A DNA stretch of 64,000 nucleotides, taken from assembly GCA_000165425.1 (NCBI GenBank), contig CT868000.1, forward strand, positions 178,173-242,172. The letters run 5' to 3'. Origin of the DNA: Paramecium tetraurelia (lineage: Eukaryota). The translations under genes and the position numbers were made by a program. This document shows, piece after piece, positions 40,895-50,823 of this stretch (position 1 is the first letter of the stretch; every line of letters starts with the position of its first letter). The notes beneath the pieces were generated by a model. That model was not told where the DNA came from. It searched no databases and was given only the letters and a program-made list of their open reading frames with translations.

Positions 40895-43767
40895 TCAAAG
40901 CTCTTCAAGTTGAGAGAACACTTCTGAAATCATTTCGGTTCTAATTGGTTTTGAAAGGAAAGCATCAAATCCTAATTTTTCACACTTCTCCTATTAAGAT
41001 TCATCGTCAAATCCTGACAAAGCAATCAATTTTATATTATCGATTTCATTATTATTAATCTACATAGAATTAAATTGTTTACCATCTTTCGAATTGTTTC
41101 GGCTGCTTACCATCCATTTACGATAGGCATTTGCAAATCCATAAACACATACTTTATGTTTAAACTCCTCTGATACTGGCATAACTATATTCATAATTCA
41201 AAATTACTTTATTTATCGCTTATTATCCATTATAGGCTTCAATTATGTCTGCTTAAGGTATTAAATTTTATAGTAGCAGTTTAACAGCCATCACATTAAA
41301 TATTTGATCGTCCACAATTAGAATACTAAACTTCTTGCTTTGAATCAACTATTGAAGTATTTATTTAGGATCTTGCACATCCAAAGAATCTTATGATTGT
41401 AGACACTTTTAAATCTAAGATTTCTAAGATATCGACTAAAATCGCAGAATATTCTTTTATTTCGATTGGTCGCTATCCTCTATTGAAGGCTCATTCATCT
41501 CAGTCTCAGCCTTTTCCAAAGGTTTCGTGTATAATCTTAGATACGATGATCTGACAAATACAGATTATTAATAAGGTTTATCTTTTGCATTCGGAGAGTC
41601 TTCGTTATGGAAATTGCTCAAGTGTTGAGAACTGTTCTCCTATTTAAAACAACTAACGTAATTTGTGATTTTATAAGAAGAATCTTATAATTTAGCATAA
41701 ATCTAAAATGTCATTTTGGTTCCTACATTTACTTAGCTTTACAAATCTATTGTATCTGATGGCCCCAATAAACTTATTAGTTTTTTACACACCATTAGAC
41801 CTATCCCAGTGCCATTCTTATTTTCTATTTTTTAAGATGAGAAAGTAGCAAACAAGTTGAATAATTTTGGTTTGATCGAATCAGCAATTCCACAGCCTGT
41901 ATCCTCAATTGAGATTGTGTATACAAGTTTGTTGGAAGACACTGGAGGTTGTTTGCCTTAAAGAGACTTTCGAATCTGAGAAATTGATTAATTGCCATTT
42001 CCATAATTGATGTTTTTCGAGGAATTGCTCCTCTTTATGTGTTAAGATTTATCAGTATTTAAAGATTAAATAGTGATTGTTATACTACCTTTTTCAGTGA
42101 ATTTCAATGAATTAGACAAGATATTCATGATAACCTACTTGATCCTATTGGGATCCGAATACACTTGATAAGAGGGAATATCATAAAAGGTCTTAATTTC
42201 AACTCCTTTTTATTCAGCTGAAATCGCTATGGTCTCAATAACTTCATCTATCAATTCATTAATATAAAAATCGCTAATGCAGAGTCTGAGTTGATTCTTT
42301 TCTATTCTTGCATAATCCTATATATCATAAATCATGTATAACATAAGATAAACATTTGTTCTTATAATATTTAGAAGATATTTCTCCTATGCATTCAAAT
42401 TCTAATTGCCTTCCAAACTCTCCAAAATAGCCACGATTCCATTTATTGGAGTTTTGAAATCATGGAAAACAGTAGCAAGAATCATATCTTTATTTTCACA
42501 GATTTATTTTGACTCTGATAATTGTTACTATAATGCATTCATTGATTTTTCCGTCTCCTTGTTTTGAAATATCAACACGAAAGCTTGATTTTTATTCCAA
42601 AAACAGTGGTTAAAGAAGAGTTTCAATTTCTTCCTCTTCAATTCACTTACGCACACATTTCTTTAACATTGACTCTAAATCAAGAATTCTTCCATTATTT
42701 TAGACTTTTTATTCGTCGGGGTCTCTTCGCTTAACTACATTGGAGCTCTGCAAAACTGAAGGTATTTTGGAGTGTCAATCATTATTTCAGGAAAGTTTTA
42801 ATTCTAGAATTTTTGTTGCTCTTCGTTTTATTCCTCATTGTGAGCTGCACCTAATTCAAAGAACTTTTGAAACAAAGGACTCGTTGCTATATATTAGCAA
42901 TTGTCCATGACTTCTGAAAATATGGATCTGAAGCTGTTTTGGGGTTTGTATAAAAAGTCTTTAGAATTTTCGAATAGGGTTTAGAGTTTAATTTAGTTGT
43001 CTGAAGAAAAGTGATACAAACAATCCATAAATTCATTCGAATGGCTTTAATCGTATTTGTATTCATTTTCCAAAGCCTTGGTATGATAGAGAGATTTCCG
43101 AGAAAATTTATCTATCACCAACAAAGGCACTGGCAAGATCTCCTTGAGTAGCATTAAAAGGTCATTTTGGTCGTTTTATTCTTGGAACTACAATTATATT
43201 GATCATCTTACCAGAAAAATAGGAGAGAACGTAAATCCTAAATAGGATATTGGGTATTAATACTCATTGAATCTTATGATTGAATATATGAGCACTGTGA
43301 AATATATTAATTTCTAAAGTAACTATACTTGGAGAACTTAAGTCAAGGCCAAAAGTTTCAGTATGATGAATATGAAAATTCCCTTGATGTTAGAGCACTA
43401 TATATACCTTCTCCTCAGTGTTTATAGTCATTTCAACCTCCACTATCTAGATAATCAATTAAGTTAGAGCTAAGTAATAATCTCCTGTTGAACAAATAAA
43501 CTTTTATTTGTAGTCTAACAATAGAAAAATCAAGGAAAATATGATATCCACAATAACAAATAGTCCAGAATCCAATGCATTGATCAATTAAGTAAGTCCC
43601 AAAACTAAAAATACAATGGATGCAATCAGATTGCATATTGCGAATCTTTGCTGTAATCCAATTTTCATAGCCAAAGAATTGAATATAATTTAATAAAATA
43701 ATTTTTCATATGTTCCTCAACTTATACACAACAAGCCGATGAAACCCTATTCTAATTTGCTTTCCAT
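40895..43767 (-). CDS. Membrane hybrid histidine kinase (TM-HisKA-HATPase-REC); start at 43767 or 43668
   Basis: H-box TVSHDFKTPING, QVIMNILSNSLKFT, IEDTGCGI, GTGIGLMVCKKL, receiver ILIVDD...FMDLQMP...SKP. In-frame TGA at 43717-43719 lies upstream of the second ATG. Confidence 0.93.
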
Positions 43768-44529
43768 AATTTATTAACTTAATCACTTTTATATAAAAAT
43801 ACTCTGAAATAAATAATAAATGATGAGAATTCTGTAATCTTCTTTGCATAATTAAAATATTCTTTGACGCTTTACCAGTATTAAATTAATCTGCGCACAC
43901 TAAATTCTTTTATGTCAGCATTTTTATCTTATAGATCTTAATATCTGTGAGTGTATCATTTCTATCTGACAATTCGATTTAAAAAATCAATTCATTTTTT
44001 TCGAGACTATTCTCTATATTAAGAAACAATTAAGATAATTTGTATTAGAAATAATATAAATATTCTTTTGGTGCTGTAGACTTATTGTGTTTAAATTAAG
44101 AGTTTAAATTATAGAGAATATTACTAATATGAAATTCTCGAATTGTTAATAAATTTTAATATTATCACTTCCGCATCAACAATTTGAATAACATTTAACT
44201 ATTTTGATCAATAGTATCAACAGATAAATTTGAAGGATTAATACATATTAATCTGCTTATCTCGGAATTAGACTCATATCAAGTTAGAAGAGTTTTTCAT
44301 TGATTTATATTAATAATTTTTCAATAAAATAAGTAAAAGTTTTAAATATATATGTTTAATTGATCAATATATTTTTATTATAAACTTATACACTGAAAAT
44401 AATTGCATCAAAACAAAAGGTAAACTAAATGATACATAAGCGAAGATTAATTAAGATAATGGAATAAATATACTTTGAAGGTTGATGCAAAAGTACTAAT
44501 CTTTGTAGACTTATTAAAGTAGTTAATAA

Positions 44530-45450
44530 AGTATTTCAGTAAATCGGAGAAGGTAGGAAAGGAAACTTATGGAATAGTAAATAAAGCATGTATAAAGAAA
44601 TTAAAAATTTCAAGGAACATTGTGACGAAGTTGTCTCTTAAAATTTGATAAGAGAGATACAATTGTACTGAAATTGATACGTCCAAGCTTAATAAGATTA
44701 TTATTTTATATAATAATTAAAAGGAAATAATTTTTGGGAACTTATAAATATTACTTCTCTGAATATTAATTAAGAGATTATTTAAAAAATATTGTTGGTA
44801 TCACCTTTGTAATAATAAGAGATTATCATATAGAGATATAAAGTTACAAAACATAATTTTGAATTACATTGAATCGACCGATTTTGGATTCATCAAGAGT
44901 GTTACCATTTCCTTTTTTTGAATTTACAATCGAAATTGAAACTCATGCACACAATGCATTTGAACTAATATTAAGAGATAGCAATCTAGGTAACACAATG
45001 AGAATGATTAATTTAGGAATGCGAAATCATGAATAAGCCAAATGAAGGCTAAGGATAACAGTTAAGTAATATTGATATAATAGAAAGAAATATTGTGCTA
45101 AACTTCATAAAGTACTTATTCGAAAGTTTTTAGATTGAGAAAATTGATGCAAGCAATATATTAATCTCTCCCTTAATTATATACAAGTTTAATTGTCTAA
45201 ATCTATATCTTAAACTTAATTATTTATTAATTCTAATCTCTTCATAGGGATTTCAAATGATGGCTAAGTTATACATACAAATAAGATTGAAAACTATAAG
45301 TTAGGACACTTTGTTTGAGAATTGAATTATTTTTTCGATTTTAAGCTTTCTAGAGCAATCCTTCATTCATCATAAACCGAAGGTTAATATTTTCACAACT
45401 TAAATATTTAAAATATAATTATCTTCAGCAAAATTAGATACCCTTTAATG
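44530..45450 (+). pseudogene. Decayed CDK-like kinase pseudogene
   Basis: Remnants EKVGKETYGIVNKA (~44545), YRDIKLQNII and TDFGF (~44830-44890), with stops, frameshifts and deletions between them. Confidence 0.7.
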
Positions 45451-45618
45451 CTACAATATGAGTTAAAACAAATTGAAACTAGATTCATATTTAAGAAATC
45501 TATGTGAATGAGGTTAAGTAACAGTGAGAAGTTATTACAGAACAATTAGATAGTATGACAAACCCTTTATGAATCAAATATTAATTTCTAATTATAATAT
45601 TGCAATAGACTGATAAAT

Positions 45619-47382
45619 TCAAATAAGTTAACATGAGGATGAATTTGAAGTCTTCTAAGTGCTATTTGCGTTATGATTCTAATTCTGATCCTATTTCTTC
45701 TACTCTACCTAAACCTACTGCTATCCCTAATCCTATTTCTACTGCTATGTCTGGTCCTATTTCTACTCCTATTTCTACTCCTATTTCTACTCCTATTTCT
45801 AATCTTATTTCTAATCTTATTTTTCTTTCTAATTCTCATTTTATTAAGTATTTTAACTTTTCTACTGGGTAGAATTTTAATGATTAGCTTAATTTTATGA
45901 ATTTTGGGAATTTCTTGAATTTTGTAAATCATTCTGGAGCTTTTAAACTTGTTGTTCAAGTCTCTTTATTTTTTATTTTTCTTCTTTTTCTTTTTGTTCT
46001 ATTAGTGCTTAGAATTATGATACCATTACATTCCTATCCTCATTTAATTGAGATATCAACTTCTCAATCACAGAAGTATCCTATTTCTAATTTTAGAGTT
46101 TTTAGTATTCACTCTTTAATTTTTCATTTTCACTTTTCAAAAGTTTTTCCTATCTTTCTTTTTCTTCTAATAATTTTTTTTTATCAATTTCATCTTATTC
46201 TTATTTAACTTTGGCCTACATTGCTTATTGATAAAATGATTCAACGACAGCGAAATATTATTTTATTTATGTTAATTGAGATTTTGCAAATTTATTTGCA
46301 ATTTCAATATTTTTATATCCATCAATGAGATTAGAAAACTCCTCAAAATATTTAAAGACTTTTTAGAAATTTTTACAATTTTGATATGAACTATTAGAGT
46401 CTATTGTCGTTAAAATGTTTTGACATGTCAAAACAAATGCTTCAAACCACTCATAAGGGTTTTTATTTGTTTGATTAAGGATCAATTCTTCCAACTTTTT
46501 GACATTAGTTTAGGCATTGAAAATTTTTTCGTTTGATTATATATTTACTAAATTTGTAATTTAACTCTGAAAATTTTAATCCAAAGCAAATACGTATTCT
46601 TAGATAATCTTTAATGCTTCATTATTTATATATTAACTTATTTTTTCGCTTTGATGCAGTTTTTTTGGGGCATATTCGCAAGGTTTCAAATTTTCAATAC
46701 AAGACCACAGTTTTTGTCTTGATTCTTAATTAAAAATTTAATTAACAACTTCTTAGCTTTAGGCTCCTTTTAAGACATGGATTTCTCTGATGTACTTTGT
46801 ATATTGCGTGAGATCCTATCTTATTTTCTTTAATAATTCTTCAATTGATTATTTTGCAATATAATTATTTAAGATCAAATCAAATGATATATTTTTGTTT
46901 TAAGTATCAAGAGAATTTAGGAATTTTTAGAAATCAGTCGCTCTACCACTAAGTTTAAATGAAGGATTTTCCAATACATAAATAACTTTTAAAGGACCAA
47001 AAGATATAATTTTGTTAAATAGAAGGTCATATAATAATTGATCCTCTTCTCCATTTGTATCTTAAAACCCAGGAAAATCAATAATTAAATGTTTCTTTGC
47101 TTGATTGTAATAGAAATTTGGTGACTTTGTAACAGAATTGATACTATCGTTTATTAAAGAAAACTCTTATTTATTATTGGTTATTGTTAATTGACTCTCA
47201 TTGTTTATTGCGAACTCTGCTCCGCATAAAAAATTGAAAATAGTACTTTTGCCGGACCCTGTTAATCCAACAATCATAACAGTCTTAATATCATTTGGTT
47301 AATTCTTAGGATATTGATTTAACAAGTTTTAACATTTATCTACCATAGCCAATATGTTCTCTGTTTTAATCCCATTATTCAT
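45619..47382 (-). CDS. AIG1/GIMAP-like TRAFAC GTPase with coiled coil, Gln-rich repeat and C-terminal CaaX (587 aa, intronless)
   Basis: Translated line by line with no TGA. G1 GLTGSGKST, G2 SVT, G3 IIDFPGFQDT; ends SSSCQLI*. Confidence 0.88.
45690..45830 (-). repeat. 12-bp-period coding tandem repeat (TAGAAATAGGAG-like) encoding QKQ(D/E) units
   Basis: Plus strand shows repeated ctcctatttcta / atcttatttcta units inside the GTPase 3' end. Confidence 0.9.
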
Positions 47383-47419
47383 TTCAAATTTACTTTAATA
47401 AATGTTTATTTCCCTGAAA

Positions 47420-48400
47420 AAATGTCTAAAAACACCCCTAAAGAATACTCTAGAATTTTAATTAAAGCAATTGTTAAAAAGAATAAAAATTTAATTGACT
47501 ATTTTAAGTAATTTCTAATACTGAAGAAAATTGATTTTTCAAAGGACTGGTCTTCTAATGCATGCTAAGGCTTTGAAAGACACTGTGACTAACCTTGATG
47601 TGCTGATTGCAAATTTGGTTTTTCTAATTATTTTGACGTTCCTGCATGTAGCTTGAAGTCATAACTTTGAGATTAGATCCTACTTTGAGAGAGATCGAAT
47701 GGTAATCCAACTTTCAGCAAAATTTTTTGTGTCCTCTCAAATAAACTCCTTCTACCAATCTAGGAGACCTTATGGGAGCAACTGTTTTTAACTAAATTTA
47801 TAGTAATTTTTAGAGATTATTTTTCCGTTAAGAAATTACGGAAAACAGAAGTGTAATTTATCAAGTAGAGGAGAATTTTTGAGTAAAGCAAAAAAGTAAT
47901 TAATTCTTGAAATTTGATAAAGTTTGATTAAAAAAGGAAGTTGATATTTTTTTTAAATTTCTAACTTCAGCTATTTTTTTGTATTTTTTCCTTATGGTTG
48001 ATCTATCAAATCCTCCTACACTTAGTAATTATATTGCTGCTACATTTTGAGCTTGCACCTTTGTGTTGAAAAATATTGTGACATTATTTTACTTTTGCCT
48101 TTCCCAATCATACAAATAGGTATCTATGAGAAAACAGTCATAAATTCTTAAGGATACTCAACAAGTTTTATCAGCACTTTTTATCACTTGTCTTCCTAAT
48201 TTTTTTTATTCATAACAAAATGTTGATATGCTTTATAATGTTTAATAGGTAGACGATTATTTATGGGAGGAAGTAAATTTCCTTTTTGTTCAATATTATA
48301 CAAGTATGATTTGAGATTAGTTCTGGTTTTTAATAGTTGCTTTTTCCAAAAATTTAAATGAAAAGACTTAAGGAAGGTGATACCTAGATTAAACATGATT
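47420..48400 (-). pseudogene. Degenerate coding relic upstream of the GTPase
   Basis: Higher-GC coding-like segments with TGAs in the frames read and no consistent intron solution. Strand and boundaries uncertain. Confidence 0.35.
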
Positions 48401-48525
48401 TGATGAAATTGGACAATTTATAATTAATGCTGTAATTTAATCCAATTAAAAGAACTTAAGTGAAGTATTATTATAACACAATTTGTTTAATGATATTAGA
48501 TATAATTATTGATTATTGTATATCA

Positions 48526-49653
48526 TCATTATTATTTCTCTTCCTAGACTAGTTTTAATAACATTTCTTAATAGGCTTCTGTCCAATTTTAGACATACCA
48601 GTCATATTGGGAACTATCTGGGTTGAAATAATCAAAGCATTCTTCTTTAGACATTTCGTATTTGGATGATGTTTATAAGAAACAAGAATGGTTGTTGTTG
48701 TGTTCGAATTTTCTATTTTTGGTTGATTATTATTGGCCTGTCAATTATAAGAAACTAGAGTGGGATCTAGACTTGAGTTGTTCTTCCAAATTGATAGAGC
48801 CATGATAGATTTCAAAAGCGAAGGAATATCTAATTTTCAATTCATCATAAGCATAATCGACACAACTTCCTGGTGCCAAATAACCAATGGCTTATGATGC
48901 AACCCCAACATCACATGATGGACAATACTTGCCAGATATATCATTAAGAATGTCCATCATTTTTTCTTCATTTTGTTCAGCTAGAATTATTGAGTTTATG
49001 ATTTACCTGCATCTGTTGAATAAGCATGAGGTGTAAACATTCCCAAAGTACCAGAATGCACGGTTAAGAATATGTGTGGGTTAAATGATTTTAAAGAATC
49101 ACGCACTGCTCTAGTTTCAGGTTCAGAAAATGGGTTTGGTCCAGATGTTACTTATCTGACATCATCTTGAACCTTTTCCCAATGTGCATCATAATTTCTA
49201 TTTATATCCACTCCATTTTCATTCTCTCTTAAACAATATTCTCCTCCTTCTACTTTCTGTCTAGATAGTGGATTTGCATTAAGAATCAGTCTTAATTCGA
49301 AATTATCAAGAATCTGTTGGTTTTTTGGATCGGTTTTTTCATAGCATAAGTCGTTTAAGAAATGAATTCCTGATTCTGGACTGATCAATTCTCTTGGATG
49401 TTCACCAAACAAAATGTAAGCTGTGCATATATATACCCAATTCAATACCCCTGTACTTTTTGTTTTGATTTCTATTAATGTTCACTTCCTTAATTTATGG
49501 ACTATCAGAAGCATTTGATAATGACAAGAATGAGCAACTACGACTCAAAGATTCTAATTCCTCATTCAATTCTGCTGTTGTGTGGTACTTGCTACTGAAC
49601 TTAGTTGCAAAAACCAATGACAGGCTCAAGGTGACAATTAATGCAATTTTCAT
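48526..49653 (-). CDS. Secreted zinc carboxypeptidase (M14 family)
   Basis: Signal peptide; HxxE in FGEHPRE; RENENGVDINRNY; GPKPFSEPETRA; TVHSG; 28-nt first intron. Confidence 0.92.
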
Positions 49654-49683
49654 AATATAATAAAAACGGAACTTAGTTTAATT

Positions 49684-50823
49684 TCAGAATTATAATATTT
49701 TATTTGTGTGATTGAAAGGACTTCCATTAGCATATTTCATCATTACTGGAGTTGCATAGATTGTAGGAGTTGAAGTTTTGGGTTATTCGTATGAATGATT
49801 GGATTGATAGGCATTCAAATTGTTACATTGAGGTTGAATTCTCATACTTAATTGCTAATGATGCTATTGAGCCTGAAAATACTGACTAAAGTAATGATTA
49901 CGAGGCTCAACATTAGGTGATTTATTGAGTTGTTTATAATGTTAACTATTATTGTTCCTTATAACTGGTTATTGCTTGACTCCTGGCTCACTAACCTAAG
50001 TCAAGCATCTGTTTTTTGAATCGCTCTTCATCTATTTGACAATCAATTACTCCAGCATTTATTTTGTCATCGACTTTTACTACTATATCAACTCAGCATT
50101 TAATTATTTTAGCCGTTTAATTTCATCAAGCAATACTTAAATTTCATCTGTGTGTTTAATTGACTTGCTCTCCTGATTCTTTGTAATGATCTTCTTCTTA
50201 TCAAAATCAAATTCTATCTCTATCTCCTCAGACCCCTGCTTCAGTAACTTATCTTATTGTTACAATAAAATCTGATTCAATTTCTTCTCCAACATCCAAT
50301 AATTCCTTTTCCAATCATCCAATTCCAATTCCATCTTCTGAATCATCTCGACTAATTTTGTTACTTTATATACAATAAAAGTCTCCTGATCACATTACAA
50401 ATCAATCGCATCATCCATTTCAATTTTATCCAAAATCTTCATTAAATTATTTGTATCTATCTTCCCCTAAGTGACCTATGATTAACACAGACTCCTCTGA
50501 TAAAATTCAGTCTCCTCTTGTATAACCTGAAGATCATTCTCATCACAACGCTAGTCCTCAAAAATAGAGTTATCCAAATTGCACTTCAACTAAACAATTT
50601 CTCTGTTGTGAATTCGCTCCTATTCCTCATACTTCTCTTCCCACATCTACTTATAAAAATCATATTACTTTTATTTATTCTCTTAATCCTGAAATCTCTT
50701 CCTCCAATTGCTAAATCGTTGTCTTTAGATGCTACTATTAATAATCTACCTTACTTCATAATCCTGATGTTTTTAAACTGAAGTAGTAGCTGATTCACTG
50801 CCTGTTGATTAATTTACAAGCAT
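49684..50823 (-). CDS. Coiled-coil hypothetical protein
   Basis: ATG 50823, two tiny introns near the 5' end, TGA 49684-49686. Confidence 0.7.

Follow-up and report, generated by a model that had tools for sequence, protein, structure and literature searches.

The gene and its reading frame

The stretch of Paramecium tetraurelia DNA analysed here (the window: 64,000 nucleotides of contig CT868000.1, assembly GCA_000165425.1, positions 178,173 to 242,172 of the forward strand) carries on its minus strand, at 45619–47382, a gene that by its sequence appears intact and free of introns and that codes for a large GTP-binding protein. The predicted product of 587 residues consists of an N-terminal G domain, an all-helical domain, a coiled-coil-like stretch and a glutamine-rich spacer, and it ends in a CaaX prenylation box (Table 1). 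As judged from its homologues it belongs to a Paramecium-specific, multi-paralogue family of large GTPases, whose members are predicted from their tails to be membrane-anchored; what is new here is the homology, detected by profile comparison, between the G domain of this family and genes of protist endosymbionts.

A preliminary description of this DNA had claimed that the frame is absent under the standard genetic code, and this is borne out: it is open only under the ciliate code, where 65 TAA and TAG codons are read as glutamine, while the plus strand of the same interval is closed by many stops. An open reading frame (ORF) listing of the window returns the identical 587-residue frame. The chance that 588 codons are free of TGA is about 5.5e-5 per frame; as TGA is the sole stop, however, and as the longest TGA-free run in 12-kb shuffles averages 366 codons and reaches a maximum of 1028, frame length alone is weak evidence for a gene. 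Homology is decisive: with 20 relatives at E-values down to 5.7e-84 and all 28 family-invariant residues kept, the frame must be real. It is also unbroken, and its alignment with the paralogues shows only a 4-residue insertion, which is too short for an intron; the gene is thus read as intronless, in keeping with the earlier claim, no intron-sized gap being left in the alignment. The motifs previously listed for the protein (GLTGSGKST, SVT, DFPG, LILNNY in place of an NKxD, and the terminal CQLI) were each located by script.

Table 1. Features of the gene and of its annotated neighbour, in window coordinates
Feature	Positions	Strand	Remarks
Whole ORF, 587 codons plus TGA stop (45619–45621), ATG 47380–47382	45619..47382	minus	NCBI table 6 translation
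G domain, residues 30–235, alpha/beta TRAFAC-type fold	46678..47295	minus	
G1/P-loop GLTGSGKST, residues 39–47	47242..47268	minus	G39, T41, G42, G44, K45, S46, T47 invariant in 15 sequences
Switch I SVTKSP, residues 83–88	47119..47136	minus	T85 invariant
G3/switch II DFPGFQDTNG, residues 102–111, family signature DxPGFxDTxG	47050..47079	minus	D102, F103, P104, G105, F106, D108, T109, G111 invariant
Arg147, after strand 4 and ahead of helix 3; putative arginine finger	46942..46944	minus	invariant in alignments A2 and A5
G4 remnant LILNNY, residues 169–174	46861..46878	minus	N172 invariant; no Asp of NKxD
All-helical domain, residues 245–399, five helices	46186..46650	minus	AlphaFold2 model, pLDDT 84.8
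Coiled-coil-like K/E/Q/L-rich stretch, residues 400–488	45919..46185	minus	heptad score
Q/N/K-rich low-complexity spacer, residues 481–583	45634..45942	minus	37% Q
CaaX box CQLI (TGT TAA CTT ATT), residues 584–587, then TGA	45622..45633	minus	conserved in paralogues
Hybrid histidine-kinase-like gene, HisKA and HATPase_c	41049–43154	minus	Pfam; weakly expressed

A Paramecium family in turnover

All 20 of the 20 named homologues come from the Paramecium aurelia complex (tetraurelia, octaurelia, primaurelia, pentaurelia and sonneborni), and a second homologue search with divergent members returned four proteins, again all from Paramecium. The best identity among the homologues listed is 53%, and none of those listed is identical to the window protein; no second copy of the family was found within the 64-kb window. 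When 15 members are aligned over their N-terminal ~400 residues (alignment A2), 28 positions prove invariant, every one of which the window protein retains. Searched against 1.84 billion representative proteins, the A2 profile drew 2202 of them at E ≤ 1e-3, of which 268 reach E ≤ 1e-10 and 26 reach E ≤ 1e-30; most of the 166 proteins examined have in common the signature G(N/D/K)TG(S/A)GKS ... DxPGFxDTxG. A Pfam scan of 54 of these profile relatives gave mostly generic or sub-threshold GTPase matches, while four multi-G-domain proteins (P0045, P0054, P0068 and P0150) lay above the cut-off for both Septin and AIG1; a homologue search with P0053 returned three proteins, which are metagenome entries. 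Databases annotate the family only as "G domain-containing protein", and no paper on it was found in the literature on Paramecium GIMAP or ciliate AIG1 GTPases.

In a tree of 33 core members the window gene groups, with 96% support, with the truncated or degenerate paralogues P0003, P0009, P0031 and P0035. The closest relative, P0002 of P. octaurelia, aligns with window positions 46255–47335 at 53% identity over a gapped alignment of 333 columns and is highly similar to the window ORF wherever it is in frame; its first 25 residues correspond, at 76%, to a different frame of the window, and the G3 region too is read out of frame, so that P0002 is likely, from these comparisons, to be a pseudogene or a faulty gene model. 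The fast turnover suspected in the preliminary description is thus apparent in this frame-disrupted copy and in the degenerate paralogues.

A divergent G domain with a predicted GIMAP-like fold

The G domain is of a divergent TRAFAC type, in which G1, the switch-I threonine and G3 are intact, G4 is cut down to one asparagine, and one arginine is invariant. MMR_HSR1 (PF01926) is the sole Pfam model above its cut-off for the window protein (30.7 vs 21.9 bits), and this score together with the presence of G1, G2 and G3 is what identifies a generic TRAFAC G domain. Throughout the Paramecium family the alignments give G4 as LNxY, with no aspartate at +3, and it therefore falls outside the canonical N/TKxD. 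Non-canonical G4 motifs are carried by many GTPases of this class. GIMAPs possess a conserved box between G3 and G4, and a catalytic arginine acting across the G-domain dimer; the stretch of the window protein equivalent to this box contains Arg147. Arginine fingers are reported for paraseptin GTPases in passages of PMC11238149, and the equivalent of Arg147 is nearly invariant in the bacterial alignment A3, described below. A dimer prediction for residues 25–245 of the paralogue P0005, in two copies with GTP, scored 0.27 against a mark of 0.32 and is evidence neither way.

Across the 15 aligned family members, Pfam matches at all strengths were to MMR_HSR1 (15 members), RsgA_GTPase (15), Dynamin_N (13), SRPRB (10), AIG1 (6) and URGCP_GTPase (4). 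Those to AIG1 (PF04548, gathering score 27 bits) are weak, with a best E-value of 6e-6, and those to Dynamin_N (PF00350) reach 12.7–17.1 bits, under a cut-off of 27 bits; the GBP models (PF02263 and PF02841) are absent among the 25 Pfam families listed for these members. A confident AlphaFold2 model of residues 1–400 (pLDDT 81.6, pTM 0.76) has as its top Foldseek matches in the PDB GIMAP7 (E 4.4e-6), EHD2, GBP5, farnesylated GBP1, IRGa6, atlastin and BDLP, all with TM-scores of about 0.3. When the 1000 best Foldseek chains were rescored, GIMAPs came first and with the longest alignments (Z of 15.0 for GIMAP7; 14.6, 13.7, 13.7, 13.5 and 13.4 for GIMAP2; 13.2 for GIMAP5; 12.3 for GIMAP1), with EngB/YsxC (14.1 and 13.9), Era and HflX (13.2) and Toc34 (13.0) interleaved among them. 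The lead of the GIMAPs over generic TRAFAC GTPases is less than 1 Z, and a fair statement is that the modelled fold appears nearest to the GIMAP/Toc-type "paraseptin" GTPases, membership of that family not being implied.

The helical region, coiled coil and QKQE spacer named in the preliminary description are all recovered downstream of the G domain, the first as helices in the AlphaFold2 model, the second as two segments (356–407 and 426–488) that are coiled-coil-like by a crude heptad score, and the third as a low-complexity sequence whose glutamines include 22 TAG and 8 TAA codons and which is built on nine tandem copies of a 12-nt unit (45715–45822). Taken alone, the helical domain has no specific structural relative in the searches made, the helical parts of GBP, GIMAP and IRG proteins being absent from the match lists.

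The CaaX box and the exchange of membrane anchors

The CaaX box, like the frame it terminates, exists only under the ciliate code, because its glutamine is a TAA codon. The sequence C-Q-L-I has the cysteine at −4, the aliphatic a2 residue and the permissive X residue of a CaaX substrate, and an isoleucine at X would favour geranylgeranylation. Whether the box is conserved in homologues had been set as a test in the preliminary description, and it is: a cysteine stands at −4 in 23 of the 121 relatives of at least 350 residues, whereas the other positions between −1 and −10 have 0–2 each (binomial P ~3e-21 for a cysteine frequency of 0.0116); 11 of the 33 core members of the tree end in CQLI, CQIF, CFIC or CKIM; all six members of the sister clade of the window subclade have a CaaX end; and the ending NSS(S)CQLI is common to paralogues that are merely 39% identical. 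By this measure of conservation the CaaX is a real feature of the family.

It is not the only predicted anchor. Transmembrane-like tails occur in 3 of the 33 core members (P0021, P0034 and P0036), polybasic ends in P0010 and P0011, and an HPWFKK end in other paralogues; CaaX box, transmembrane tail and polybasic tail clearly replace one another as membrane anchors within the family. In three further Paramecium proteins, P0040, P0048 and P0050, the P-loop is degenerate (GSARCGKT, GSQKSGKT and GSQNSGKT) and DFPGF is absent, yet they end in CQLI, CQIF or CQIQ; they may be pseudo-GTPases in which the anchor survives, and since such paralogues retain the CaaX, the anchor and helical parts can persist without a working G domain.

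Relatives in protist endosymbionts and viruses

One Ala/Arg-rich subfamily of the profile relatives, aligned as A3, has matches at 40 loci in the prokaryotic genome collection. The best of them lie in metagenome-assembled genomes (MAGs) of Alphaproteobacteria, in Ca. Finniella inopinata and a second Ca. Finniella sp., in Caedibacter sp. 37-49, in a Ca. Odyssella sp. (92-kb contig), in Gammaproteobacteria MAGs, in a Chlamydiae MAG (172-kb contig) and in a proteobacterial MAG (2.18-Mb contig); lower-ranked matches in Clostridia are limited to the stretch from G1 to G3 and could belong to other GTPases. One of the profile relatives, P0132, matches the Finniella locus at 100% identity, and a direct tblastn comparison of the window protein with the Caedibacter-labelled locus L004 gives an E-value of 5e-11, with 24% identity over 290 residues. 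Comparison of A2 with A3 by hhalign gives a probability of 99.6% and an E-value of 2.7e-24 over 214 columns, corresponding to window residues 33–246; the homology to the symbiont genes thus takes in the whole G domain and ends at the start of the helical domain. In a separate tree of the G domain, built from 99 rows after 30 of 129 had been dropped for coverage, the Paramecium core is monophyletic (99% by the Shimodaira–Hasegawa-like approximate likelihood-ratio test, SH-aLRT) inside a 97% group with the Odyssella gene and genes of the proteobacterial MAG. The preliminary description had proposed a possibly horizontally shared family and a phylogeny with intracellular bacteria as a check, and the sharing of the G domain with endosymbiont genes agrees with this; as the tree is unrooted and most of its rows are unnamed, no direction of transfer is claimed.

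Some of the bacterial proteins carry additional domains. In the 223-kb contig of an Alphaproteobacteria MAG, the gene at L006:2563-4932 (+) encodes 790 residues with a signal-like N-terminus and a U-box (47.6 vs 21.4 bits) followed by the GTPase, and adjoins pnp-like housekeeping genes; from this arrangement its product resembles the eukaryote-like effectors of protist symbionts. In the Ca. Odyssella sp. MAG, L007:2725-3837 (+) has a lipase-like GHSQG segment before the GTPase (Lipase_3 at 20.7 bits, below cut-off), and the next ORF after the GTPase gene, L007:3890-4918 (+), gives weak RING-finger matches. GTPase domains related to GIMAP/AIG1 are also carried by Amoebophilus effectors, for which a remodelling of host membranes is proposed in passages of the Aravind review (PMC3417536); the words "GTP", "U-box" and "ubiquitin" are absent from the main text of a 2025 review of the Holosporales (PMC11909080). 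A separate observation is that the bacterial C-termini of P0049, P0093, P0113, L002 and L006 share a motif of their own (with endings such as FGLQFMRL, FGIGFMRY, YGLQMMRM, HFMFRL and NFTFRL).

A scan of viral contigs with the family profile yielded 589 pattern matches and no confirmed relative. A fold search of BFVD returned GBP-, AIG1- and dynamin-like proteins of giant viruses, which are look-alikes at the level of the fold only (E 3e-7 to 1e-3, TM-scores of about 0.2–0.36); they include a Tupanvirus RING-type domain-containing protein, in parallel with the bacterial U-box fusion, and AIG1-family proteins of Marseillevirus and Pithovirus.

Comparison with known GTPases

The GIMAP/AIG1 proteins, represented by human GIMAP7, GIMAP2, GIMAP5 and GIMAP1, resemble the window protein in a G3 motif of the DxPGxxDT type, in an arginine after strand 4 that is invariant in the Paramecium family, and in a C-terminal membrane anchor. 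GIMAPs typically anchor by transmembrane helices, as some of the Paramecium paralogues with a transmembrane tail may do. The window protein, in contrast, is only 13–19% identical to them and far longer, has a helical domain of 150 residues for which no GIMAP likeness is listed, and possesses a coiled coil, a Q-rich spacer and a CaaX box in place of the transmembrane helix.

The guanylate-binding proteins (the farnesylated human GBP1, GBP2 and GBP5) share the N-terminal large G domain, the elongated helical part and the C-terminal CaaX, and full-length GBP1 and GBP5 are both in the Foldseek top 10, at E-values of 4e-5 to 8e-5. Of the GBP-style body plan that had been proposed, the architecture therefore stands; a relationship by sequence does not, since there is no GBP or GBP_C match in Pfam and the helical domain alone has no GBP match in the lists. 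The likeness to GBPs is one of architectural analogy and not of family membership. Septins and Toc34/Toc33 come into the comparison through Cdc11, the only PDB sequence match that covers G1 to G3 (E 0.002–0.006, which is marginal), and through the Septin-positive multi-G-domain proteins that the family profile reaches; the window protein has neither the septin unique element nor the Toc transmembrane architecture.

With the GTPases of endosymbionts (Finniella, Caedibacter, Odyssella and the Chlamydiae MAG) the window protein shares a core of G1, switch I, G3, the arginine and the asparagine, as well as a coiled coil after the G domain. They differ from it in their N-terminal signal-like segments and in the U-box and weak lipase-like fusions of L006 and L007; some of them keep an NKxD (NKFD in P0049), and their common C-terminal motif is not CQLI. 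EngB/YsxC, Era and HflX, finally, are single-copy, conserved and soluble and have RNA-binding partner domains, whereas the window gene is lineage-specific and multi-copy, and its product, which is predicted to be anchored to a membrane, has a helical domain and a coiled coil.

Possible function and state of the locus

In animals and plants, large membrane-anchored GTPases such as GBPs, IRGs and GIMAPs have a central part in cell-autonomous immunity; their counterparts are little studied in free-living protists, which constantly ingest and host bacteria. For the window gene, the reading to which the evidence tips the balance, if slightly, is that of a prenyl-anchored, self-assembling membrane GTPase of the Paramecium-specific family that is either conditionally expressed or decaying. 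Its C-terminal cysteine would be prenylated, and probably geranylgeranylated in view of the isoleucine at X; the lipid, at the end of the long flexible spacer, would hold the protein on an endomembrane; and the coiled coil, together with nucleotide-dependent contacts between G domains, would drive assembly into a membrane scaffold, as in GIMAPs, septins and GBPs. The swapping of CaaX, transmembrane and polybasic anchors among paralogues suggests that they may be targeted to different membranes.

Several observations weigh against this reading. The first concerns expression, for which three oligo-dT RNA-Seq runs of one study, under the same species label, were read over 43200–49700 (33–42% of each run). 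All three have zero reads in the five bins of 46021–47105 and in the next two, to 47539; in the 3'-most bin (45587–45803) the depth is 1.07, 0 and 1.07, on the strand expected for a minus-strand mRNA, and these reads sit on the tandem-repeat region and could come from elsewhere. The neighbouring gene at 48408–49700 (minus) has in those runs a depth of 7.7–66.7, and the end of the histidine-kinase gene (43200–43850) one of 0.2–3.2; between them some 4.5 kb (43851–48407), made up of the gene and both of its AT-rich flanks (43851–45586 and 47540–48407, which are unusually long), is essentially devoid of polyA reads in an otherwise gene-dense genome. The preliminary description had named a lack of transcription as grounds for giving up its interpretation, and essentially none is what these runs show. 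The contigs of X3, whose RNA label is guessed, had a depth of 4.6–8.6 over parts of the ORF but of 3.6–4.1 between genes, maybe from DNA carry-over, and were not used.

Other difficulties lie in the gene and its relatives. Its terminal branch in the tree of core members measures 1.08 against a median of 0.3, and P0002, being read out of frame at both places, has lost G1 and G3 in that copy or in its gene model. The aspartate that specifies guanine is missing from G4, and GTP specificity is therefore not assured. The window protein matches none of the Pfam models AIG1, GBP and Septin (PF00735) at E ≤ 1, and sequence searches of PDB chains, whether by the protein itself or by the family profile, gave matches at the level of the P-loop, with no GIMAP or GBP among them. 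Of the profiles against which the preliminary description had proposed a check, MMR_HSR1 was thus found and AIG1 and GBP were not, and its designation of the protein as AIG1/GIMAP-like agrees with the modelled fold, with GIMAP7 at the top of the Foldseek matches, but not by Pfam. The silence of the locus, the long branch and the frame-disrupted P0002 together imply either expression under special conditions or early loss; being apparently silent, and with its nearest relative broken, this particular locus makes a weaker case than the family does.

The most serious rival takes the same facts further and sees a dying copy, a paralogue that still looks intact and has been functionally released in a birth-and-death family on its way to becoming a pseudogene. 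The want of reads over most of the ORF beside a well-covered neighbour, the silence of the whole 43.85–48.4 kb, the broken P0002, the truncated or degenerate subclade and the long branch are all as it would predict. Against it stand the length of the TGA-free frame, the complete set of invariant residues, the intact CaaX box and the faint correct-strand reads over the 3'-most ~200 nt in two of the three runs; moreover, the RNA comes from one study and a narrow range of conditions, and its strain may differ from that of the window, given the variant positions in 48408–49700. We regard a dying copy as distinctly less probable than the reading given first, although it deserves to be taken seriously. 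A static scaffold, that is a pseudo-GTPase or ATPase which does not cycle GTP and serves as a lipid-anchored coiled-coil tether, would account for the family-wide loss of the aspartate from G4, for the retention of the CaaX in P0040, P0048 and P0050 despite their P-loops, and for the appearance of EHD2, an ATPase, as the third Foldseek hit; the strict conservation of G1, the switch-I threonine, G3 and the arginine in 15 of 15 members argues for catalysis, however, and irregular G4 motifs are common in GTPases of this class, which makes such a scaffold improbable. Least credible by far is a housekeeping GTPase of ribosome biogenesis, of the EngB/Era/HflX type. Its one recommendation is that the sole Pfam model above cut-off bears the name "50S ribosome-binding GTPase"; but MMR_HSR1 is a generic G-domain model and no NCBIfam model comes near its cut-off for the window protein, let alone an equivalog, the named homologues are all from Paramecium and form many paralogues in place of one conserved orthologue, the helical domain, coiled coil, spacer and predicted membrane anchors fit poorly, and a housekeeping gene would be expected in the polyA RNA of growing cells, in which this gene is essentially unread.

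A role in defence has more to recommend it, though it too appears rather unlikely: by analogy with prenylated GBPs, the protein might coat food or symbiont vacuoles and attack or mark them. The combination of G domain, helical domain and CaaX is that of farnesylated GBP1, and GBP1, GBP5 and an IRG protein are among the Foldseek matches; the family has undergone a lineage-specific expansion with turnover; obligate endosymbionts of protists have genes homologous to its G domain, and one of these genes has a U-box fusion, as would be expected of symbionts that mimic or target a system of the host; the proposal that GIMAP-like effectors remodel host membranes points the same way; and a gene that needs induction could well be silent in standard cultures. 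Yet there is no GBP or GBP_C match in sequence, the helical domain has no listed likeness to GBP or IRG proteins, homology to symbiont genes does not show an interaction, and the tree is unrooted. A bolder form of this idea, and a long shot, is a host–symbiont conflict in which host GTPases assemble on vacuoles while secreted symbiont copies, with their U-box and lipase-like fusions, join, poison or ubiquitinate the assemblies through the shared G-domain interface; on this view the window gene would be inducible, remaining silent in clean cultures. Whichever reading holds for the locus, a G domain shared with genes of Holosporales-like and chlamydial endosymbionts, one of them carrying a U-box, offers a testable entry into the biology of Paramecium and its symbionts.

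Neighbouring genes

The preliminary description had placed the gene between two decayed relics, a picture that the surroundings do not support: the flanking ORFs have neither a Pfam match nor homology to the family, and downstream there are only short frames. Of nine nearby ORFs scanned against Pfam, eight were unmatched and one is the hybrid histidine-kinase-like gene of Table 1; a hydrophobic ORF upstream of it (43264–43668, minus) may be its N-terminal exon. In the well-expressed gene at 48408–49700, the one exon tested had no Pfam match, and small introns are suggested by loose ends of reads at 48726, 48982/49007 and 49418/49449. The same reads have alternative letters at 19 positions, most of them in 30–90% of reads, which suggests that the strain is another one, that there are alleles, or that a duplicate gene contributed reads. 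The longest TGA-free run of the window, at 2622 codons, points to a very large ORF elsewhere within it.

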